The notes beneath the pieces are model-generated. The model worked only from the letters and a program-made list of their open reading frames with translations. It made no database searches and was not told where the DNA came from. A stretch of 34,348 nucleotides of DNA, from contig CAZFAZ010000041.1 in assembly GCA_964517155.1 (NCBI GenBank), positions 1-34,348 of the forward strand. The letters are read 5' to 3'. The position numbers and the translations under genes are program-made. Positions within the stretch are counted from its first letter, which is position 1. Every line of letters begins with the position of its first letter. This DNA is from an uncultured Thermoplasmatales archaeon (lineage in GTDB: Archaea > Thermoplasmatota > E2 > DHVEG-1). Positions 6,266-34,348 of the stretch are shown in pieces.

Positions 6266-8212
6266 ATGGCTGAACAAGAAACAATGCCGGTCTTTAAACC
6301 GAGCAATGATTTTAGCTCAAAAGCATACATAAAAAGCATGGATGAATACAAAAAAATGTATGAAGAATCCATAAAAAACCCTGATAAATTCTGGGGCAAA
6401 CTTGCTGAAGAGCATGTAAGCTGGTACAAAAAATGGGACAAAGTACAAGAATATGATTTCAAGAAAGGTAAAATTCGATGGTTTGACGGTGCAAAACTAA
6501 ATGTTTCATATAACTGTCTTGACCGCCATGTAGAAAATGGTCATGGTGATGATATTGCAATTATCTGGGAAGGAAATGAACCAACTCAAGACAAGACTTT
6601 TACATATAAAGAGCTTTTAGATGAAGTACAAAAATTTGCAAACGTTTTAAAATCAAAAGGTGTCAAAAAAGGAGATCGTGTCTGTATTTATCTTCAGATG
6701 GTGCCTGAACTTGCAATTTCAATGCTTGCTTGTGCAAGAATAGGTGCAATACATAGTATTGTCTTTGGAGGTTTTTCAGCAGATTCCTTAAGAGATAGAA
6801 TTAATGATTCTGAATGTAAAATGCTTATCACTCAGGATGAAGGCGTTCGTGGTGCAAAACCACTTCCAATGAAAGTAACTGCAGATAAAGCACTCAAAGA
6901 AACGCCAAGTATTGAATCGACAATTGTTGTAAAAAGAGTTGGTGCAAATGTTGAGATGACTGATAAAGACTACTGGTGGCATGAAGAAATGAAAAATGCA
7001 GAACCAAACTGTCCACCAGAGCAAATGGATGCAGAAGATCCATTGTTTATTTTATATACATCTGGCTCTACTGGGAAACCAAAAGGAGTACTTCATACAA
7101 CTGCAGGATATCTTGTTTTTGTATCTGTTTCTCATAAATATATATTTGATTATCACCCCGGGGATATCTACTGGTGCACAGCAGATATTGGTTGGGTCAC
7201 AGGTCACTCATATATTATATATGGTCCACTATGCAACAAAGCAATAACTCTGGTGTATGAGGGTGTTCCAAACTATCCTGATTGGGGTCGTTTCTGGGCT
7301 GTAGTTGAAAAACACAAAGTAAACACATTTTATACAGCACCTACTGCACTTAGAGCTTTGATGAAAGAAGGAGACAACTGGGTAAAACAACACGATTTAT
7401 CTAGTTTAAAACTTCTTGGAACCGTCGGGGAGCCAATTAAATCAAAAGAGTGGAACTGGTATCACAAACTTGTTGGAGGAAATCGCTGTCCAATAGTTGA
7501 CACATGGTGGCAGACAGAAACCGGTGGAATTTTAATTACTCCTCTTCCTGGTGCAACACCATTAAAGCCTGGTAGCGCAACATATCCATTCTTTGGAGTA
7601 GAGCCAGCACTTTTGGATGATGCTGGAAATGAGCTGAAGGGAAATGGAGTTTCAGGAAACCTTGTTATAAAAACTGCATGGCCGGGTCTTATGAGAACGG
7701 TATACGGTGATCACGAAAGATTCAGAAAAACTTATTTTTCAATGTATCCCGGATACTTTTTCACAGGTGACGGATGTTTAAGAGATGAGGATGGATACTA
7801 TTGGATTACAGGTAGAGTTGACGATGTGATGAATGTATCAGGTCATAGAATAGGTACAGCAGAGGTGGAAGGAGCTCTTGGAAAACACCCAAAAGTTGCA
7901 GAAGCAGCAGTAGTGGGATTTCCTCATGAAATTAAGGGACAAGGAATTTATGCTTATGTAACTTTGAAGACTGGTGAAATAGTTGATACAAATCTTACAA
8001 AAGAGCTTGTTAATACGGTTAGACAAGAAATCGGAGCAATCGCAACACCAGATAAGATACAATATGCTGAGGGTCTTCCAAAGACACGTTCTGGTAAAAT
8101 TATGAGACGTATCCTACGTAAAATTGCAGATGGAAACGTTGACCAGATTGGTGATACAAGTACACTTGCTGATCCAAGTATTGTAGACTCTCTTGTAAAA
8201 AATAGGCAGTAA
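6266..8212 (+). CDS. acs: Acetyl-CoA synthetase (AMP-forming)
   Basis: [44 protein letters not shown] and [21 protein letters not shown] at 6254-6260 favours ATG 6266 over GTG 6257. Confidence 0.96.
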
Positions 8213-24689: not shown

Positions 24690-24842
24690 ATTTTAAAACC
24701 TCACACAATTTTTATTTTGTAGTTTTTATTTAAAAAGACTTGTTGTACAACTCTTACCCTGCTTCTTTACAACAGTTATCCGAATGCTTTAAATCTCAAT
24801 TGTTTATACACCCCACCAGCAAGATTTAATGGGGTAGATTTT

Positions 24843-25973: not shown

Positions 25974-26023
25974 TGACATTTTTGCAGGTTAACTTTAAAT
26001 ACCATATTTGACAAAAATTGTCA
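25974..26023 (+). promoter_or_regulatory. Response-regulator promoter with TGACA box, TATA and TGACA-N5-TGTCA palindrome
   Basis: TGACA at 25974, TTTAAATA at 25994-26001, and TGACAAAAATTGTCA at 26009-26023 next to the predicted TSS. Confidence 0.65.
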
Positions 26024-26060
26024 TGGTAAAGATGTTTCTTAGGAAGGTGAAAAAATAAAG

Positions 26061-26450
26061 ATGAATAAAAGAGTAATGATTGTTGATGACGAGCCTGACG
26101 TCTTAATATCACTAAAAACTGTTCTTGAAAGACAAAACTATGATGTTATAACAGTTACAAACGGCTCAGAATGCTTAAAAGAAATCGAAAAAGGGTTCAC
26201 AGGCGTAATACTTATGGATATAATGATGCCAGTAATGGACGGCTGGGAAACAATAAATCAAATAGTAAAAAAAGGTTATACAAAAGATGTTGCAATAGAA
26301 ATAATTACAGGTAAAGGAACAAAAGACTATCAAAAACTAAGCATACTAGGCTCATACATATATGATTACCTTGCAAAACCACTAAATGTAGAGCAACTTG
26401 TAGCAAGTGTAGAGGCATGTAACAGATACTTTCACTCAAAAAACGCATAA
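26061..26450 (+). CDS. Stand-alone response regulator receiver (CheY-like) protein
   Basis: VMIVDDE, phospho-acceptor ILMDIMMPVMDG, ITGK and YLAKP; no output domain. SD GGAAGGTGA. Confidence 0.93.
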   Translation: MNKRVMIVDDEPDVLISLKTVLERQNYDVITVTNGSECLKEIEKGFTGVILMDIMMPVMDGWETINQIVKKGYTKDVAIEIITGKGTKDYQKLSILGSYIYDYLAKPLNVEQLVASVEACNRYFHSKNA

Positions 26451-26464
26451 AATCTTATTTTTTT

Positions 26465-26510
26465 TGACATTTTGTCATTTTGACATTTTACCAGATTAGC
26501 CTTAAATATA
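26465..26510 (+). promoter_or_regulatory. Second copy of the TGACA-TATA promoter, with no ORF downstream
   Basis: TGACA-TTT-TGTCA-TTT-TGACA at 26465-26485 and CTTAAATATA at 26501-26510. Matches 25974-26001 at 23 of 28 positions. Confidence 0.65.
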
Positions 26511-26530
26511 ATTACAGTTCTACCAATTTT

Positions 26531-26651
26531 TACACATCCCATCCTAACAAAAATTTTTGTTGGGTCTGGATCAAAAAAAATTCCAAACACCAAATTCACG
26601 TTTATTAATTTCCTGCTTTAAAGGATCCAGGCCCTACTACCCCTCATTTTT
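26531..26651 (+). ncRNA. Candidate small RNA (~120 nt)
   Basis: Has its own promoter, an 11-bp stem 26562-26572/26624-26634, a hairpin at 26543-26564, C-rich ends and a 3' oligo-T at 26647-26653. Confidence 0.5.
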
Positions 26652-27317
26652 TTAAAAATCACTAAGTTTTTTGATACTTTTTTGTTTTAAAAGATTACTT
26701 GTAGTTTTCCAAGAACGTCTAACCTGCGGAGGCAGATTTTTGTATTTATCAAGCCATTTGCTTAAAAAATTCTGAGTGATTGGATCGGCAGGATAACCAC
26801 TGCCCATTGGAATATTTAGTTTTTTTTCAAGTTGCTCTGCAATCTTTACAATTTCTTCATCTCTTCTTGTTTTTGCAATAATTGATGCGGCACTAACAAC
26901 AGGATAAATATCGTCTGCTTTATGTTTTGAAATAATCTCTGGTTTAAACGAAAGATTTGCAAGAATATCATTTGCAAAACGTTTTTCATTTACATCTGCG
27001 GAATCAACATAACAAATATCTGGTTTTAGTTTTTTAATAACACGTGCAAAAGCATTTACTTCGATTTCATTTAAAGTCATTACCTTTCGCATATCATCAA
27101 TATCTTTTGCAGGGATTACTAAAACTTCATAATCAACTGCTATTTGTTTTATTTTTTCTGCTAAATATTCTCTTCTTTTAGGAGCAATTTTTTTAGAATC
27201 TTTTACTTTTAATTTTATTAAATCTTGATCGTTTTTGAATAATGCGCCTGCTATAATAAGCGGACCAATTACAGGACCTCTGCCGGCCTCATCTGCACCA
27301 CAAATCATTTTATGCAT
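26652..27317 (-). CDS. rnhB: Ribonuclease HII
   Basis: GADEAGRGPVIGP, VKDSK, YVDSAD, HKADD.YPVVSAASIIAK..RD, GSGYP.DP.T and VRRSWKT. Confidence 0.97.
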   Translation of the reverse strand: MHKMICGADEAGRGPVIGPLIIAGALFKNDQDLIKLKVKDSKKIAPKRREYLAEKIKQIAVDYEVLVIPAKDIDDMRKVMTLNEIEVNAFARVIKKLKPDICYVDSADVNEKRFANDILANLSFKPEIISKHKADDIYPVVSAASIIAKTRRDEEIVKIAEQLEKKLNIPMGSGYPADPITQNFLSKWLDKYKNLPPQVRRSWKTTSNLLKQKSIKKLSDF

Positions 27318-27406
27318 AGTAACATCTGTTGGTAAAAAGATGTTGCGATAAAAAACAAAGATATAGGCAGTTTTTTATTACAATATTTTATTCACAGCCT
27401 TTGTTT

Positions 27407-27480
27407 GCCGATGTAGCTTAGCCCGGTTGAGCGGCTGATTCGTAATCAGCAGGTCGAGGGTTCAATTCCCTCCATCGGCT
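27407..27480 (+). tRNA. tRNA-Thr(CGT), intron-less, CCA not encoded
   Basis: Acceptor stem GCCGATG/CATCGGC with discriminator T; anticodon arm GCTGA-TTCGTAA-TCAGC (CGT at 27441-27443); T arm GAGGG-TTCAATT-CCCTC; upstream TTTATTA TATA box. Confidence 0.97.
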
Positions 27481-27485
27481 TAATA

Positions 27486-28682
27486 TCATGATATTTTTAT
27501 TTCTAAAAACCATATATTACTTTCTGCAGATTCTTCTTTTTGCATATATCCTGCTATAACAAAATCATCATCTGTTTTTTTATCTATCCATACGCCTGCT
27601 CCATAATGTTTTGCATCTATTACTTCTTGCCATACTTTTTTTCCGTTGTTGTCAACTTTTACTACTAATAAATTATCCTCCCCATAAACGCCTATGTATC
27701 CTGCAGCAAGAAATCCTTGAGAAGTTTTTACAATTGAGCTTATTCCAGCAACCAAATTATTATCAATTATCAATTCCCATTCTTTTTTACCATCAAAATC
27801 GGTTTTTACAATATATCCACACCAATCCCCAATTCCGTTCTTTTCAGTATGTCCTGCAAAAACAAAACCATCATCAAATATGATAACCTGATTAAAACGA
27901 TCATTATATTCAAACCCATAAGTGTAATTCCATAATTCATGTCCTGTACTATTCACCTTTATTGCCCATGCGTCGCTATTTTCTTTTGCATATGATTTTG
28001 TAAAACCACAGATAATATAACTTTCATCATTTGCTTTTACAATTGATCTGGCTTCATCAAAATCTTCTCCTCCAAAAGTTTTATTCCAAAGTTCATGTCC
28101 GGTTTTATTTACCTTTACTAACCAAGCATCAGATATAAATTCTTTTTTTGAGTATGAAGCAGTGGAACCTACTAATAAAAAATTTCCACTACCATCTTCT
28201 GTTAGAGAATTTCCTTCATCCCATCTTACTCCACCGTATGTTTTATTCCAAATTTCATTTCCTTTTTGATCGACTTTGATAAACCACATATTTGCACCAT
28301 AAATATTTGTTACGTATGTGTTTGTTGTGCCTAGTATAAAATAAGAATTATTATCTTTTTGAAAGACTATTTTACCATAATCTTTACCGTTACCACCATA
28401 TGTTTTGTTCCATTCTTCTGTTCCTTTTTCGCTTATTTTTATTAACCATATATTTCCATTTTTATCGCTGTATGATTGTGTGTAACCAGTTAGTATGCAT
28501 CCTTTATCTTTTGTTGGTAAAATAAATGAGCCTGAGGAATTTGCATTTAATCCAAATGATTTATTTACAGATATTTCAAATGTTTTATCTTTATTATCAA
28601 ATCTAACAAATATAGTAACCGCAAGTAATATAATTGTTAGAATAAGAATAGTAGATATTGTAATTTTATTTTTTAATTTCAT
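27486..28682 (-). CDS. Secreted or membrane-anchored beta-propeller-type repeat protein
   Basis: N-terminal TM/signal (MKLKNKITISTILILTIILLAV) and about seven repeats of W(L/F)(I/V)K....G.E.WNKT(Y/F)GG...D. SD AGGCGG favours ATG 28682; the ORF track starts at 28724. Confidence 0.8.
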   Translation of the reverse strand: MKLKNKITISTILILTIILLAVTIFVRFDNKDKTFEISVNKSFGLNANSSGSFILPTKDKGCILTGYTQSYSDKNGNIWLIKISEKGTEEWNKTYGGNGKDYGKIVFQKDNNSYFILGTTNTYVTNIYGANMWFIKVDQKGNEIWNKTYGGVRWDEGNSLTEDGSGNFLLVGSTASYSKKEFISDAWLVKVNKTGHELWNKTFGGEDFDEARSIVKANDESYIICGFTKSYAKENSDAWAIKVNSTGHELWNYTYGFEYNDRFNQVIIFDDGFVFAGHTEKNGIGDWCGYIVKTDFDGKKEWELIIDNNLVAGISSIVKTSQGFLAAGYIGVYGEDNLLVVKVDNNGKKVWQEVIDAKHYGAGVWIDKKTDDDFVIAGYMQKEESAESNIWFLEIKIS

Positions 28683-28875
28683 TTTTTGCCGCCTTTGCAA
28701 TAAATTTAGCTTTAACAAAATCAATATTTTGAGTTAATATAATACTTTTGTTATTCTTAGTTTAAGAATGGATTTTGATAATGATTATACCATAAAGCTT
28801 TTATATATAAAAAATTATATATAATCTATATATTTGGATTAAAATAATAAAATAAAATTGCGGAGGAACAATTAA

Positions 28876-31800
28876 ATGAAAAAAAATTCAAAAATAATTA
28901 AAGCTGTTTTTATAAACTGTCTATTACTGTTATCAGTATTTTCAGTTGTGTCAGCAGAGGACTATGATGTTGATGTATATGATGGTATAGAATATGAAAT
29001 CGAAATACCTGAAATACATGAACTGCCTCAAATTATCTGCCCAGATAATGAATTTAGTAAAAAGGTATGGGACGATAATACTCAAAGTTGGGATGAAACA
29101 ACTTCACATAATATTGGGGATATTATTAAATTCAGATTGATTTTTACAGCCGAAAAAACAACAAGCGATGTAAAAATTATAGATTATCTACCTAACACTG
29201 TTGCGTTCATCAATTCATCTAGCGCACCATCACTAGTATCTTATAACCAATATTTTGATTTAGGTAATGGTATATTAGGTCCTTGTACAAAAATAGAATG
29301 GAACATTGGAGATATGGGGGTGGGTCAATCCATAGAAATTATTATTCATGGTGAAATTATAGACCACTATAATAAGTATTATGAATCTGAGTACAATCTG
29401 TATGAACCTCGTGGTATAACTAATCCTGAGGCAGTATCTTCTACAAGAAATGTTGCTGTTTTAACAGGTACAAGATATCAATCAGGGTGTGGAAATCCAT
29501 ATCCTTTTACCAAAACCAACGATGCTTTTTTTACTATAATTCTGCCATCTGCAGATATTGAAGTCAACAAATATGTAAGAGATTTATCCTGTAGTTCATA
29601 TCAATCTTACTCCCGCGATTGTTGTTTATATTACGATAGTGTAATTGTTGATAAAGGCGATTCTGTCAGGTTTAAGATAGAAGTTAAAAATACGGGGGAT
29701 GTACCTCTTAATATAACTGTTTTTGATAGTTTGCCTCAAGGTCTTATTTATAACAATAATGCTACACCTTTTGAGCCTGAAACTATTGTTTTGTCTTATG
29801 TTAATGATGGTCATATTATGTATGTTTGGCATATTGGCATTGTTAATCCTAATGATACCGCAGTTATCACTTTTGATGCAATTGTAGATGGTTTTGGAGT
29901 TTACGAAAATTCAGCATCAGCTGTAGGTGCAGCACAAAGTGAAATTGTGGGTGATGAAGACATTGCTACAGTTATTGTCCCATGTGCACCTGGTGTAGAA
30001 ATCGAAAAATGGGTTTGGAATGGAACTGCTTGGTCAGATTATGCTGATGTTAATCTTGGTGATAATGTTAGATTCAAAGCAGTTATTTATAATCCATCTG
30101 AGTGTTATTTAATGCATTTCTGTGGTAATGTTTTTGATCAACTGCCAAGTAATCTTAGGTATGTTAATGGTAGCTCTACTATTTATGAAAGCATGGGTTG
30201 GCCAAATATGGAAGTAGTTGATTGGGAAAATAATACTGTTACTTGGTATAAACCTCCTACTATTATGCCTGGTGAAAATCTTACTTTTTATTATAATGCA
30301 ACAGCTGTAGATTGTGGTTTGGGGATAAATAATCTTACTGCGCATCCTGAGGGTTTTGATCCTGTTGATTATCCTGGAGGAGAATCTGTTTCCAATATCG
30401 ACGGTTCGTATGATGTTTCTGCTAATGCAACTGTAAATGTGATTTGTGAGTTAGAGCGTGGTATTGACCTTGTAAAAACAAATGATATCTGTGAATGTGT
30501 AGATCTTGGTGGTATTATAACTTATACTTATAGGGTTACTAATATTGGTGATGTAACTCTTTATAATGTTAGTGTTGTGGATGATGTTCTTGGTGTTATT
30601 GGGTTGAATAGTACGGTGCTTGCTCCTGGTGAGTGGGCTGTTGGAATAGTGCAACATCAGGTAACTGAAAGTGATTTACCTGGGCCGATTGAGAATGTTG
30701 CTAATGCTTCAGGGGAGGATCAATTTGGTATTGTTGTGTATGATGATGATACTAATAGTATTGTGATTTGTGAACCGTGTCCAGTTATTGATATAGATGT
30801 TAAAAAAATTGTTAAATGGAATTGCCAAGATCCAACATATAATGATACTACCTATGCTCATGTAAACGAATGGGTTACGTTTAAAATAACTGTTAATAAC
30901 ACTGGTGACGTTCCAATTAATATAACGATTTGTGATATTTTACCGCCGGGGCTTGTTTATAATGGATATCCTAGAGTTAATGGTGCTGAAGTTCATCCAG
31001 ATGGTATGTGTTGGACCATAAATAACGTTCAAACTGGTGGTACAGTAATAGTTACCTTTAGAGCTATGGTAATGGTCTGTGGAGAGCATATAAACACAGC
31101 AGTTGTTACCGCAGTTTACGATGGATATGAACCTGTTGTCAAACAAGATAATGCTACTGTTATTGCGTTATGTCCAGATATAGAGATTGTAAAAAGCGCT
31201 GATTCAAACCTTGTATGTAATGGCAGTGAAGTAACTTATACTTATACTGTTACAAACACTGGTAATCATCATCTTATAAATGTAACTGTTACCGATGATA
31301 AGATAACAGGTGTTTCTTATGTTTCTGGTGATACTAATATAGATGGTTGGCTTGATCTTGATGAAACTTGGATTTACAATGCAACTAGTATTTTATGTGA
31401 AAATACAACAAATACTGCTACTGTTTCTGCAAAAGATGAACTTGGAAGAATAGTTACTGATTATGATACCGAGTTTGTTGAAGTAATAGAGTGTCAAGAA
31501 CCTCCAGAACTTGGAATAGAAGTTAATAAAACTGTTAAGAGAAACTGTTGTGGTGATTTTGGAGAAATCGCATATGTTCATCAAAATGATTGGGTGACAT
31601 TTAACATAACTGTTACTAACACTGGTGATGCACCTCTTAATGTAACGGTTACTGATATTCTTCCATGGGGTCTTGATTATGATAATCATGCTACACCAAA
31701 TGGACCTGATTTAGTTATAGTTAGTGTGGGTGTTCCATATCCTGATACAATTTATGTTTGGAATCTGGGTTTTGTTGATCCTGGTGAAACATTTATAATT

Positions 31801-34348
31801 ACTTTTAGAGCAACAGTTAACGGCCAAGTTTGCGGTGGCCTTATAAATAATGTTTATGTGAGTGGAACTTATGAGGATTATCCTGAAGTAACAGATGAAG
31901 ATTCTGCTGAAGTATTTGTTTTATGTCCTGGTATAAGTATTGTTAAGTCTGCTGATAAAACCTTTATTAGTCCTGGTGAGTTGGTTACTTATACTTATGA
32001 GGTTAATAATACAGGTAATGCTGCTTTGAGAAATGTTGTTGTAGTTGATGATAAGCTTGGTGTTGTTTCTTATGTTTCTGGTGATCTTGATGTTGATGGG
32101 TGGCTTGATCTTGATGAAACTTGGATTTTTACTGCTACTGCAAATCCAATGCAAGATGTTTGTAATGTTGGTACTGTTACTGCAGAGGATGAACTTGGAA
32201 AACAAGTTTCTGATAATGATACAGTGTGTGTTGTTGTAATCAATCCAGGAATTAGTGTTATTAAGAATGTTACTCCTTGTTGTGTTTTACCTGGAGAGTA
32301 TGCTACTTGGAATATTACTGTTCAAAACATTGGTAATGTTATTCTTACAGGTGTTTGTGTCATTGATGATAATATAGGTATTTTGGATAGTATGATTTCT
32401 CTTGCCCCTGGTGAGAAGAAATATTATGAATATACCACCAGTCCAACAGTTGAAACAACAAATACTGTACAGGTTAATGGTACCGATCCTCTTGGTTTAG
32501 AGGTTTCAGATTCTGATAGTGCAACTATTGAAATCTGTGAAGTAAATATTGATATAAATGTTGAAAAAACTGTTAAACTTAATTGTTGTGGTGATTATCT
32601 TGAGAATGTTACTTTGCATGTTGGTGATTGGGTGACTTTCAAAATTGAGGTTACTAATACTGGTGATGTTCCTCTTGATATAGAGGTATGTGATGTTTTG
32701 CCTTTTGGTTTACAATATGCAAATAATGCAAAGGTTGATGGTGTTTCTCAGGAGCCTGTTGATAGCTGTTGGTTCATAGAAAATGTTGTCGCAGGTAGGA
32801 CTGTTGTTATTACATTTGAAGCTGATGTTGTAGAGTGTGGTAAGTTTGTTAATACTGTTAATGTTGTAGGTTATTATGAGCAGTTTGAGCCTGTTATAGA
32901 TAGTGATAATGCAACTGTTGAGGTTTTATGTCCTGGTATAAGTATTGTTAAGTCTGCTGATAAAACTCTTATTAGTCCTGGTGAGTTGGTTACTTATACT
33001 TATGAGGTGAGTAATACGGGTAATGCTGCTTTGAGAAATGTTGTTGTAGTTGATGATAAGCTTGGTGTTGTTTCTTATGTTTCTGGTGATACTAATGTTG
33101 ATGGGTGGCTTGATCTTGATGAAACTTGGATTTTTACTGCAAGTACTCAGTTGGATAAGAGTACTACAAATGTTGGTACTGTTACTGCAGAGGATGAACT
33201 TGGAAAACAAGTTTCTGATAATGATACAGTGTGTGTTGTTGTACAAGAATGCCCACCAATAATTAATTTAGAAGTTGAAAAACAAGCTAAGAGGAATTGT
33301 AGTGGAATTTATGGTGACTATATATATGTTGAAAAAGGTTATTGGGCAACATTTAAAATTATTGTTAAAAACACAGGTGAGGTTCCTCTTGATATACAAG
33401 TTTGTGATATACTTCCTGAAAATTTGACTTATGCAGGTTATCCACAGGTAAATGGCGTACCGATTAATCCAATTGATATGTGCTGGGTAATAAATGGTGT
33501 AGAACCAGGTGAAAAAGTTATAATTACTTTTAGAGTAACAGTTGATGAATGCGGTGAACATGTAAATACAGTAATTGTTACTGGTTATTACGAGCAATAT
33601 GAACCAGTTGTTGTTGAGGATACAGCAACTATTTTTACAATATGTCCTGATATAAGTATTGTTAAAACTGCTGATTCAAACCTAGTAAATTTAGGAGACC
33701 TTGTAGCATATACTTATACTGTTAAAAATACTGGTAATCATCACCTTAAAGACATTGTTGTAACTGATGATAAGCTTGGTGTTGTTTCTTATGTTTCTGG
33801 TGATCTTGATGTTGATGGGTGGCTTGATCTTGATGAAACTTGGATTTTTACTGCAAGTACTCAGTTGTATGAAAATACTACAAATGTTGGTACTGTTACT
33901 GCAGAGGATGAACTTGGAAAACAAGTTTCTGATAATGATGATGCATATGTAGAAGTTTTTGAGTGCGGTTGTACACCAAGTATTTCTATTGATAAAAAAG
34001 TATTTGACGGTGAAGTATGGGTTGATGATTTAGTAGTAGAAAAGTTTACTGCATATGTTGAATTCAAAATAATAATTAAAAACACCGGAACATGTGATTT
34101 AACAAATATTGTTGTAATTGATACAATGAATTGTGGTCTTGATTCTGCAACTGATTTTTCAGTTACACCTAATACTATAAATGGTGAACAAATTACTTGG
34201 TTAATACAAGGTGATCTTTTACCATCTCAGACAATTAATATTACATTTAATGCAACAGCGCATATGAATACTTCAAATGAGGTTTTGGTAACTGCTAATT
34301 CAACATATGATCAAACATCTGTTAGTGCAGATGATGAAGTAACAATTA
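28876..34348 (+). CDS. Giant (>1824 aa) Cys-rich surface protein with ~14 DUF11/DUF7507-like Ig-fold repeats; runs off the window
   Basis: SD GGAGG, then ATG 28876 and signal peptide MKKNSKIIKAVFINCLLLLSVFSVVSA. The frame stays open to the window end, which is why it is missing from the ORF track. Repeated K....V.(F/Y).(I/Y).V.NTG....V.V.D.LP.GL.Y motifs. Confidence 0.88.
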   Translation, partial: MKKNSKIIKAVFINCLLLLSVFSVVSAEDYDVDVYDGIEYEIEIPEIHELPQIICPDNEFSKKVWDDNTQSWDETTSHNIGDIIKFRLIFTAEKTTSDVKIIDYLPNTVAFINSSSAPSLVSYNQYFDLGNGILGPCTKIEWNIGDMGVGQSIEIIIHGEIIDHYNKYYESEYNLYEPRGITNPEAVSSTRNVAVLTGTRYQSGCGNPYPFTKTNDAFFTIILPSADIEVNKYVRDLSCSSYQSYSRDCCLYYDSVIVDKGDSVRFKIEVKNTGDVPLNITVFDSLPQGLIYNNNATPFEPETIVLSYVNDGHIMYVWHIGIVNPNDTAVITFDAIVDGFGVYENSASAVGAAQSEIVGDEDIATVIVPCAPGVEIEKWVWNGTAWSDYADVNLGDNVRFKAVIYNPSECYLMHFCGNVFDQLPSNLRYVNGSSTIYESMGWPNMEVVDWENNTVTWYKPPTIMPGENLTFYYNATAVDCGLGINNLTAHPEGFDPVDYPGGESVSNIDGSYDVSANATVNVICELERGIDLVKTNDICECVDLGGIITYTYRVTNIGDVTLYNVSVVDDVLGVIGLNSTVLAPGEWAVGIVQHQVTESDLPGPIENVANASGEDQFGIVVYDDDTNSIVICEPCPVIDIDVKKIVKWNCQDPTYNDTTYAHVNEWVTFKITVNNTGDVPINITICDILPPGLVYNGYPRVNGAEVHPDGMCWTINNVQTGGTVIVTFRAMVMVCGEHINTAVVTAVYDGYEPVVKQDNATVIALCPDIEIVKSADSNLVCNGSEVTYTYTVTNTGNHHLINVTVTDDKITGVSYVSGDTNIDGWLDLDETWIYNATSILCENTTNTATVSAKDELGRIVTDYDTEFVEVIECQEPPELGIEVNKTVKRNCCGDFGEIAYVHQNDWVTFNITVTNTGDAPLNVTVTDILPWGLDYDNHATPNGPDLVIVSVGVPYPDTIYVWNLGFVDPGETFIITFRATVNGQVCGGLINNVYVSGTYEDYPEVTDEDSAEVFVLCPGISIVKSADKTFISPGELVTYTYEVNNTGNAALRNVVVVDDKLGVVSYVSGDLDVDGWLDLDETWIFTATANPMQDVCNVGTVTAEDELGKQVSDNDTVCVVVINPGISVIKNVTPCCVLPGEYATWNITVQNIGNVILTGVCVIDDNIGILDSMISLAPGEKKYYEYTTSPTVETTNTVQVNGTDPLGLEVSDSDSATIEICEVNIDINVEKTVKLNCCGDYLENVTLHVGDWVTFKIEVTNTGDVPLDIEVCDVLPFGLQYANNAKVDGVSQEPVDSCWFIENVVAGRTVVITFEADVVECGKFVNTVNVVGYYEQFEPVIDSDNATVEVLCPGISIVKSADKTLISPGELVTYTYEVSNTGNAALRNVVVVDDKLGVVSYVSGDTNVDGWLDLDETWIFTASTQLDKSTTNVGTVTAEDELGKQVSDNDTVCVVVQECPPIINLEVEKQAKRNCSGIYGDYIYVEKGYWATFKIIVKNTGEVPLDIQVCDILPENLTYAGYPQVNGVPINPIDMCWVINGVEPGEKVIITFRVTVDECGEHVNTVIVTGYYEQYEPVVVEDTATIFTICPDISIVKTADSNLVNLGDLVAYTYTVKNTGNHHLKDIVVTDDKLGVVSYVSGDLDVDGWLDLDETWIFTASTQLYENTTNVGTVTAEDELGKQVSDNDDAYVEVFECGCTPSISIDKKVFDGEVWVDDLVVEKFTAYVEFKIIIKNTGTCDLTNIVVIDTMNCGLDSATDFSVTPNTINGEQITWLIQGDLLPSQTINITFNATAHMNTSNEVLVTANSTYDQTSVSADDEVTI
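31168..33957 (+). repeat. Four ~318-bp intragenic domain repeats: A1 31168-31485, A2 31921-32238, A3 32926-33243, A4 33640-33957
   Basis: A2 and A3 are near-identical at DNA level (e.g. TTATGTCCTGGTATAAGTATTGTTAAGTCTGCTGATAAAAC). All four share GTTTCTTATGTTTCTGGTGAT and TGGCTTGATCTTGATGAAACTTGGATTT. Confidence 0.92.

Follow-up and report, generated by a model that had tools for sequence, protein, structure and literature searches.

The locus

The window, by which the whole analysed stretch of 34,348 nucleotides (nt) from an uncultured Thermoplasmatales archaeon is meant, contains a short intergenic segment between a gene for a CheY-like receiver protein and the convergent gene for RNase HII (rnhB). 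Comparison with related genomes indicates that this segment, positions 26534-26653 of the + strand, is very probably a conserved small RNA gene, uncatalogued so far, that is single-copy, syntenic and supplied with its own promoter. Its putative product is referred to here as RNA A. The 5' end of RNA A is complementary to a sequence, the start box, that is found at the start codons of archaellum regulators, an archaellin and transposases, and RNA A may be transcribed on its own and act in trans as an antisense RNA, masking these start sites. This statement as a whole is given a probability of about 0.4. The features of the locus are the following:

26061-26450, + strand: stand-alone CheY-like receiver gene, 129 amino acids, the conserved left neighbour (Pfam Response_reg, E 1.7e-23)
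26458-26465, + strand: T8 run, 8 nt 3' of the receiver stop codon, read from the sequence
26465-26485, no strand assigned: upstream element with half-sites TGACA (26465-26469), TGTCA (26473-26477) and TGACA (26481-26485), conserved in the first alignment (A1)
26486-26509, + strand: core promoter, TTTTACCAGATTAGCC followed by the TATA box TTAAATAT (26502-26509), with CTTAAATA invariant in A1
26534-26653, + strand: RNA A, small RNA of about 120 nt, with estimated ends; covariance-model matches span 26530-26656
26535-26544, + strand: 5' seed CAUCCCAUCC, single-stranded (unpaired probability 0.91), nearly invariant in 30 homologues
26543-26564, + strand: P0, a weak 5' hairpin of CCUAAC (26543-26548) with GUUGGG (26559-26564), from the predicted fold
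26562-26572, + strand: 5' strand of the stem P1, GGGUCUGGAUC, from fold and covariation
26573-26623, + strand: region enclosed by P1, A/U-rich and unstructured in the genus of the window, from alignment and fold
26624-26634, + strand: 3' strand of P1, GAUCCAGGCCC, from fold and covariation
26635-26646, + strand: 3' tail UACUACCCCUCA, C-rich and loosely like the anti-Shine-Dalgarno end of 16S rRNA, unpaired probability 0.97
26647-26653, + strand: T7 run, overlapping the rnhB stop codon (26652-26654) by 2 nt
26652-27317, - strand: rnhB, convergent, the conserved right neighbour (Pfam RNase_HII, E 3.8e-46)

Conservation of RNA A

In what follows, G-numbers denote genomes and g-numbers genera of one Thermoplasmata family, and G000 is the 1.59-Mb genome to which the window belongs. 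BLAST searches of related genomes detected the stretch within the genus of the window and partly in other genera. Alignment A1 consists of an invariant upstream block that ends in CTTAAATA, followed by an unconserved spacer of fixed length, with conservation resuming at ACATCCCATCC. The covariance model R1 gave exactly one match per genome in 34 of 108 family genomes, representing 21 of 40 genera. Model R2, rebuilt from 30 matches, found the structured small RNA with an oligo-T end, which a first-pass annotation had placed between the receiver gene and rnhB, in 37 of the 118 genomes of the order; every one of these belongs to the same family, and none was detected in two sister families (0/8 and 0/2 genomes). 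As Infernal's stricter filters were used and many of the genomes are incomplete, absences from these searches are no proof. A scan of a sequence collection returned 14 matches, ten of them in metagenome-assembled genomes labeled “Thermoplasmatales archaeon” or “Thermoplasmata archaeon”; the remaining four, in bacterial metagenome-assembled genomes, are taken for chance.

The neighbourhood of RNA A is tightly conserved. The receiver open reading frame (ORF) lies 5' of it in 28 of 30 loci, the other two being truncated by contig ends, and rnhB lies convergent beside it in 27, with two loci truncated by contig ends and one provided with a different neighbour. The serC gene is found farther upstream in 23 of the 30, and receiver, rnhB and serC were all confirmed by Pfam. 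RNA A shares the strand of the receiver gene, always lies 80-110 nt past its stop codon and adjoins the 3' end of rnhB. Because no + strand gene follows RNA A, a role as a leader or riboswitch is unlikely, and insertions and deletions of 1-2 nt between close relatives rule out that the small ORFs over RNA A are coding.

Genus g44 contains two weak RNA A-like matches (E 0.004-0.008), at G072:C135 8088-8524 and G073:C23 21316-21779. These are located directly after, and convergent to, a gene similar to EarA, which stands in place of rnhB.

Searches of Rfam 15 at gathering thresholds returned a tRNA at 27407-27480 as the sole match in the whole window. Relaxing the cutoff to E ≤ 10 over 26400-26750 produced sub-threshold chance matches only (best 19.9 bits, against a threshold of 60), and the homologous and diverged loci from nine other genomes gave no match at E ≤ 0.1. 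A match to a known family, which by the first-pass annotation would have ended the claim to novelty, is absent. RNA A also lacks the hallmarks of guide RNAs: TGATGA and CTGA are both missing from 26534-26653 and from the conserved columns of the 30 aligned sequences, and the nucleotides that follow P1 in the homologues (UAC, UAA, AGA, UUU and others) include no conserved ACA.

Structure and strand

The predicted fold of the + strand consists of exactly P0 and P1, with a minimum free energy of -20.5 kcal/mol (z = -2.24, equalled by 6 of 200 shuffles), whereas the - strand adopts a different fold with z = +0.16. The z-score of this single sequence is moderate only, and it is the conservation among homologues that lifts RNA A above chance. 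P1 pairs GGGTCTGGATC (26562-26572) with GATCCAGGCCC (26624-26634) over 11 base pairs (bp), including one U-G pair (T26565/G26631), as the first-pass annotation had described. In an alignment of 30 homologues that was fitted to the model and so favours the structure, 93.8% of P1 cells pair and 6 of the 11 pairs show double changes; none of 500 shuffles equalled this, and sliding the partner strand by 1-3 columns reduced pairing to 57% or less. P1 is still 96.2% paired in a MAFFT alignment of 12 sequences, and A1 already contains a compensatory change in G018 (GGGTCTGAATC / GGTTCAGACCC). Beyond pairing, the sequence of P1 is itself conserved: three of the 11 pairs never vary in alignment A4 and most of the others do so rarely.

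The U-G pair of the window had been used earlier to argue for a + strand RNA. This argument extends to the whole family, as the corresponding pair is U-A in 19, U-G in 9 and C-G in 1 of the 30 sequences, and a U-G would be C-A on the opposite strand; the wobbles fit transcription from the + strand only.

The 5' end, ACAUCCCAUCC, is nearly invariant across the family and unpaired in the predicted fold. P0 overlaps the last 2 nt of the seed and the first 3 nt of P1 (GGG 26562-26564), and to this extent the competition for GGG that had been proposed for this hairpin is borne out; its sequence, however, is not conserved outside the genus, where short weak hairpins of varying register recur between seed and P1 (AUCC/GGAU, CCU/AGG, CAUC/GAUG). 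In most genera the P1 loop contains a further hairpin, P2, built from unrelated sequences (UUCAAGAU..AUCUUGA, CCAGAUU..AAUCUGG, UUAGGAU..AUCCUAA) and followed by the conserved single strand CAUUCACCAAUUCCCUGCUUUU. On the MAFFT alignment, 6 of 10 P2 pairs show double changes, yet only 59% of cells are paired, owing to misalignment. The genus of the window has lost P2: its three sequences fold to 0.0 kcal/mol, and remnants inside the loop of the window are CACCAAAUUCAC (26588-26599) and CCUGCUUU (26612-26619). The 3' tail is variable and C-rich, with CCUC or CUCC in 17 of 30 homologues, then oligo-T. Several genera have a T4-T6 run ahead of the CCUC motif, which indicates that this motif may lie outside RNA A.

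Genera g42, g7 and g49 have diverged homologues at the corresponding position. Read by eye, these retain the promoter, a compensated P1 and CACCAAUCC and lack the seed. With filters off, R2 scores them weakly at 26.1, 23.7 and 13.8 bits.

Promoter and transcription unit

The upstream region is consistent with RNA A being transcribed on its own. TGACA occurs upstream in 26 of 30 loci, and among the 20 loci with an exact seed the inverted TGACA/TGTCA pair is present in 15; these half-sites probably form a binding array for a transcription factor. The TATA box begins 30-33 nt 5' of the seed in all 20 exact-seed loci. Given the usual archaeal spacing, transcription would start at about 26532-26536, close to the ACATCCC at which conservation begins in alignments of relatives, and the seed would occupy nt 2-13 of RNA A. 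Oligo-T runs terminate archaeal transcription. The T8 run after the receiver gene, 5' of RNA A's own promoter, is therefore likely to be the terminator of the receiver transcript, and the T7 run at 26647-26653 is likely to be that of RNA A, with the 3' end placed within it.

The promoter belongs to a rare type. The pattern TGACATTTTnnCAGrTTArCyTTAAATA, allowing up to 5 substitutions, occurs at 10 sites in the genome, two of which defined it; the reversed pattern occurs at none and 20 shuffled patterns at 0-2. This promoter class precedes RNA A, the adjacent receiver gene, a second stand-alone receiver gene, two Arch_flagellin genes and a gene for a PKD/Hint protein, with the remaining sites located ahead of two proteins without a Pfam match and at two places without a clear ORF. 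Since it has this rare promoter type in common with the two receiver genes and the two archaellin-family genes, RNA A is probably co-expressed with the motility regulon. The idea that the shared promoter defines a pure motility regulon is weakened by G009, in which the same type lies ahead of an unrelated membrane protein gene, and the promoter type carries moderate weight as a pointer to motility.

The promoter of the receiver gene (window 25974-26023) is of the same type as that of RNA A (TGACATTTTTGCAGGTTAACTTTAAATA). Its leader contains the palindrome TGACAAAAATTGTCA (26009-26023) followed by GGTAAAGATG, and similar leaders, in which a hairpin is combined with GGUAAAGAUG / GGUAAUGAAAUG, follow other promoters of the class (G000 C77, C46, C65).

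The start box in the genome of the window

Seed CAUCCCAUCC and start-codon box GGAUGGGAUG are perfectly complementary. G000 contains 18 copies of GGATGGGATG, the reverse complement of the seed, compared with a mean of 1.05 for 300 shuffled 10-mers (95th percentile, 3), a 17-fold over-representation. By the ratio of observed to expected counts under a second-order model it ranks 7th of 51,171 10-mers, and most of the 10-mers ranked above it overlap one another within a single other repeat. Among the 17 copies outside the RNA A gene, nine lie in sense orientation at a translation start, one encodes Gly-Trp-Asp, four are in structured non-coding sequence and three are unclear. The box's own second AUG is the start codon in five of the nine start copies, and the others have their start codon at a distance of 2-16 nt, counted from where the box begins; we estimate that chance would produce about 0.2 placements of these kinds. 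The genes concerned are identified by Pfam as two EarA-like regulators, an archaellin (Arch_flagellin), a winged helix-turn-helix regulator and three DDE transposases, while one is without a match; a fourth transposase copy of the box is a contig-end duplicate.

RNA A presents an accessible and conserved region that is complementary to translation starts, nine of them in G000. Duplexes between its first 32 nt and eight box sites have predicted energies of -19.4 to -24.6 kcal/mol, and 1000 random windows give -8.6 ± 2.8 kcal/mol (minimum -19.7). As for a possible second seed in the P1 loop, the complement GGAATTGGTG, which also encodes Gly-Ile-Gly, has 4-17 copies in five genomes and AAGCAGGGAA has 2-6 copies, so that both are only mildly frequent.

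The box differs from the ordinary ribosome-binding site of these archaea. As 16S rRNA was not found in the assemblies of G000, G004, G101 and G018 (nor 23S in that of G000), the 16S 3' end was taken from eight other family genomes, and it reads GGAUCACCUCCU in all eight. The normal Shine-Dalgarno site of the genome is GGUGA/GGGGU; with such a 16S end and such sites, the box is not a canonical ribosome-binding site. The possibility that the box is the complement of an rRNA segment was rejected for 16S rRNA, in which no site matches with two mismatches or fewer. The nearest matches in the rRNA region are AAUCCCAUCC, in a tRNA-like T-arm/acceptor sequence that flanks the 16S gene (read by eye), and two sites with two mismatches downstream.

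The start box across the family

Each of the 108 family genomes has 4-40 copies of the box, compared with 0-2 for a reversed control. EarA-like genes are present in 106 of the 108, several per genome. Among 40 EarA-like starts sampled in 39 genomes, the box is exact in 28, where its AUG serves as the start codon, differs at one position in ten and is absent from two. In G107, which is without RNA A, at least six box copies are start-proximal. The 18 copies of G018 divide into nine that encode Gly-Trp-Asp, four of these in one peptidase-like motif, three that are start-proximal, five in structured sequence and one that is unclear.

The full start of these EarA-like genes reads GGAUGGG-AUG-CA(G/A)-GA in 28 of the 40 sampled, and in 38 when one mismatch is allowed, for example at G000 C5:2332 and C51:16975. 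The 7 nt 5' of the AUG are non-coding yet conserved and unlike a canonical Shine-Dalgarno site.

Many box copies in G041, G042 and G020 are located 15-70 nt from contig ends. This suggests that multi-copy insertion sequences, at which these assemblies break, begin with the box, and it fits the three DDE transposase starts of G000.

Related elements

A second RNA with the anti-box, RNA Y, was found when a structured copy of the box was read on the opposite strand (G000 contig C88 5045-5136, + strand; also L134-L145). Y starts with (U)GGGGGAGUCUGGAU, has the loop GCAUCCCAUCC(C/G)AUUCC..CUUU and closes with UCCAGACUUCUCU; an exact-pattern search yielded 12 examples, each preceded at about 26 nt by a TTTATAAA box. 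Model R3 places Y in 63 of 108 genomes and 31 of 40 genera, some of them without RNA A, at 1-3 copies each, with the limit that some of the R3 matches listed are reverse-strand shadows of the near-palindromic Y stem. Like RNA A, Y has the P1 core GUCUGGA/UCCAGAC, the anti-box CAUCCCAUCC followed by AUUCC..CUUU, a CUCU-type tail and a TATA box. Unlike RNA A, it carries the anti-box inside the loop enclosed by P1 and not at the 5' end, is only about 90 nt long and resides at other loci in 1-3 copies. It is also the more widespread of the two (63 versus 37 genomes) and matches the extended box GGAUGGGAUGC over 11 nt. Cross-matches between the models are weak: R2 scores 20.8, 15.7 and 11.7 bits on the reverse strand of Y, and R3 detects RNA A in G007 and G093. 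The presence of the same unpaired 10-11 nt in two related RNAs, at different positions, makes a functional anti-box likelier than coincidence.

Element X, a conserved structured element of about 75 nt, contains the start box in sense orientation (GGAAGG..GGCUGG..CCUC..GGAGGGGAUGGGAUGCAC..ACUACCAGCCCGAUUCCUUCC). It was located at G000 C32:25349, C56:20191 and C56:4963 (all on the - strand), at G018 L121, L122 and L126, and at G107 L150, L159 and L162, and it has no Rfam match at E ≤ 1. X may act as a decoy that captures the anti-box RNAs, or it may be a riboswitch-like RNA.

A further short conserved element, RNA B (..CGGGGGAYAUGCCAGC, a variable loop, then GCUGGCAUUUCUGCCACA and oligo-T), is present in 62 of 108 genomes at up to three copies each and has no Rfam match. 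Its stem is invariant; the loop varies in length and is often C-rich, with CCUCC in many copies, and a promoter-like AATA(C/G)TTTC..TATATAAA lies upstream. In other genera B is found in the slot beside rnhB (L064, L065, L067-L069, L071, L076-L079). The notion that B replaces RNA A at the locus was rejected, as the two co-occur, in tandem in G023, G083, G097 and G070.

Finally, the SNORD41 model gives a weak, C/D-box-like match (E 0.53, 22.8 bits) at about 6840-6886 of G000 C86 (L102 291-337, - strand). The site contains UGAUGA as well as a terminal stem and is possibly a C/D small RNA of the archaeal type.

A proposed mode of action and its alternatives

Conservation, structure, promoter, complementarity and the location of the boxes can all be read from the compared genomes. 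From these we infer transcription, pairing in vivo and the direction of an effect as follows. RNA A, co-expressed with the CheY-like and archaellin genes, would pair through its 5' end with the box GGAUGGGAUG on the mRNAs of the EarA-like, archaellin, winged helix-turn-helix regulator and DDE transposase genes. The CAU of the seed would cover the AUG, such that translation initiation is blocked or otherwise modulated. P1 and the conserved loop would serve as a scaffold or protein-binding site, and the U run as a terminator.

Several findings weigh against this model. The box is equally frequent in genomes without RNA A or Y, and it stays on the EarA-like starts of genomes in which neither RNA was found, such as G005, G003, G006, G103 and G106. 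Co-variation of seed and box was sought across genomes and was not found: the diverged seeds of G004 (CACCACAUCU), G101, G007, G014 and G079 face an unchanged, canonical EarA-like box. The box is older and wider in distribution than RNA A, and the main weakness of the model is that natural co-variation does not back the pairing. Part of the box excess is, moreover, coding, with GGA-TGG-GAT-G read as Gly-Trp-Asp in 9 of the 18 copies of G018 and 1 of the 17 of G000. The box consensus extends with a C (GGAUGGGAUGC), which fits Y and not RNA A. The seedless homologues of g42, g7 and g49 indicate that the seed is not the most widely conserved part of RNA A, and the ends, strand and expression of RNA A are themselves deduced from sequence.

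Some of these findings lend weight to the strongest alternative, which is nevertheless doubtful. According to this alternative, RNA A works mainly via a protein partner, as a scaffold, sponge or part of a ribonucleoprotein, with P1 and the loop CACCAAUUCCCUGCUUUU doing the binding and the complementarity to the box being secondary or coincidental. The almost invariant sequence of P1, the same 7-bp core in Y and the persistence of P1 and the loop motif in the seedless homologues speak for this alternative, as does the lack of co-variation between seed and box. Set against this is the small chance that the best-conserved unpaired 10-mer of an RNA should happen to complement one of the most over-represented 10-mers of the genome, and that the same anti-box should recur at a different position in the paralogous Y. 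Besides the receiver and RNase HII, no candidate partner is encoded beside the RNA A gene.

A broader version of the antisense model concerns the whole family and is unlikely. In such a circuit, GGAUGGG-AUG would mark the starts of the EarA-like master regulators of the archaellum, some archaellins, other regulators and several transposase families; RNA A and Y would both display the anti-box and jointly shut off the genes that start with the box, and X elements would be decoys.

The first-pass annotation had likened both C-rich ends of RNA A to anti-Shine-Dalgarno seeds, from which follows an improbable explanation in which the single-stranded ends titrate GGAGG/GGUGA sites, for instance that of serC, or bind the 30S subunit. 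The ends are indeed unpaired, the 5' end is conserved and CCUC or CUCC recurs in the tail of 17 of the 30 homologues. The tails of G000, G018 and G010 are predicted to pair with the Shine-Dalgarno site of their own serC at -13.7, -10.5 and -11.0 kcal/mol. The 5' end CAUCCCAUCC, however, does not match the 16S 3' end GAUCACCUCCU, which is identical in eight family genomes, and is no anti-Shine-Dalgarno mimic. The tail is variable, five of eight genomes pair it with serC weakly (-2.1 to -8.0 kcal/mol), and in the genera with a T4-T6 run between P1 and CCUC the motif may be untranscribed. The more specific match that had been pointed out, between CTACCCC (26637-26643) and GGGGTAG (24831-24837, 5 nt before the serC ATG), does exist; a serC-specific pairing was nevertheless rejected, as GGGGTAG is present 57 times in the genome and GGGGUA(G/A) is the conserved, ordinary Shine-Dalgarno site of serC.

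It is more improbable still that RNA A is no separate RNA, and instead an element or terminator in the 3' untranslated region of the receiver mRNA or a bidirectional terminator shared with rnhB. Its constant place after the receiver stop codon, abutting the 3' end of rnhB, and the GC-rich stem followed by a U run do resemble such an element. Between the receiver stop codon and the start of RNA A, however, stand the T8 run, the array of TGACA/TGTCA half-sites and a TATA box whose spacing is constant at 30-33 nt. The loops of intrinsic and bidirectional terminators measure 3-8 nt and such terminators have no conserved unpaired sequence, whereas the P1 loop measures at least 51 nt and both the unpaired seed and the loop motif are conserved, which a terminator would not need. 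A terminator scan of 26000-27500 returned no sites. The right neighbour in G014 is not rnhB, and the matches in G071-G073 lie on contigs other than that of rnhB.

Least probable is that CATCCCATCC at the transcription start is a DNA operator or initiator whose factor also recognises GGATGGGATG near other starts: the motif does lie near the predicted transcription start, as read by eye, in RNA A and several box genes, but in protein genes it is strand-specific and tied to the start codon and not to the TATA box, with distances from TATA-like sequences that range from about 25 to 45 nt, the anti-box of Y lies about 40 nt inside the transcript, and the box of X lies inside a structured RNA.

Other sequences in the window

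Downstream of the locus, an ORF of more than 1824 amino acids (28876-34347, + strand), open at the end of the window, is composed of repeated modules of about 120-130 amino acids (..VTNTGN..L.NV.V.DD..) and looks like a surface protein. The adjoining 27486-28724 (- strand) encodes a repeat protein with a recurring W.K.YGG motif.

Significance and comparison with known systems

To our knowledge, a target or mechanism has been established for very few regulatory RNAs of archaea. Open-access text contained no report on small RNAs of this uncultured sediment lineage, nor on a small RNA (sRNA) acting on EarA or archaellum genes. RNA A represents a new RNA family with a usable covariance model, and the conserved start-codon box provides a concrete, testable set of targets. 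EarA is described as an activator of the fla operon in Methanococcus and Pyrococcus; RNA A would possibly add an RNA layer to the control of the archaellum, so far known at the level of transcription only. The start box is in its own right an unexplained signal at translation starts, distinct from the Shine-Dalgarno sites of the same genomes. If the broader, family-wide circuit is true, archaeal motility and transposition would be switched by sRNAs that sit on the start codon in the manner of a false anticodon. What could go beyond a further archaeal sRNA is the start box, together with the A, Y and X set.

The archaeal C/D-box and H/ACA guide sRNAs, which are also abundant, resemble RNA A in being small and structured and in carrying a short antisense element. 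RNA A differs from them in that it has no C (RUGAUGA) or D (CUGA) box, no conserved ACA and no Rfam match.

Bacterial trans-acting sRNAs of the RybB and OmrA/B kind target many mRNAs through one conserved seed at the 5' terminus. Like these, RNA A has a conserved unpaired seed at its extreme 5' end, ahead of a structured body that finishes in a terminator-like sequence, and its putative targets are several and lie at translation starts. It belongs to another domain of life, however, has no homology to them and implies no Hfq-type chaperone, and its target box is unusual compared with theirs in being a conserved motif common to unrelated genes.

The nearest described mode of action is that of sRNA162 of Methanosarcina mazei, which like RNA A is an archaeal intergenic small RNA. 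According to Jager et al. (2012, PMC3510493), a single-stranded region of sRNA162 pairs with the trans-encoded mRNA of a transcription factor and masks its ribosome-binding site, while the 5' end is a second targeting domain and the RNA also acts in cis on a neighbouring gene. The two RNAs have no similarity in sequence or structure, and no cis target is seen for RNA A. The target described there for sRNA162 is a single Shine-Dalgarno site, whereas that proposed for RNA A is a conserved box that includes the start codon and is common to multiple genes. The action of sRNA162 was tested there by gel shifts and genetics (PMC3510493), and that of RNA A is proposed from sequence comparison.

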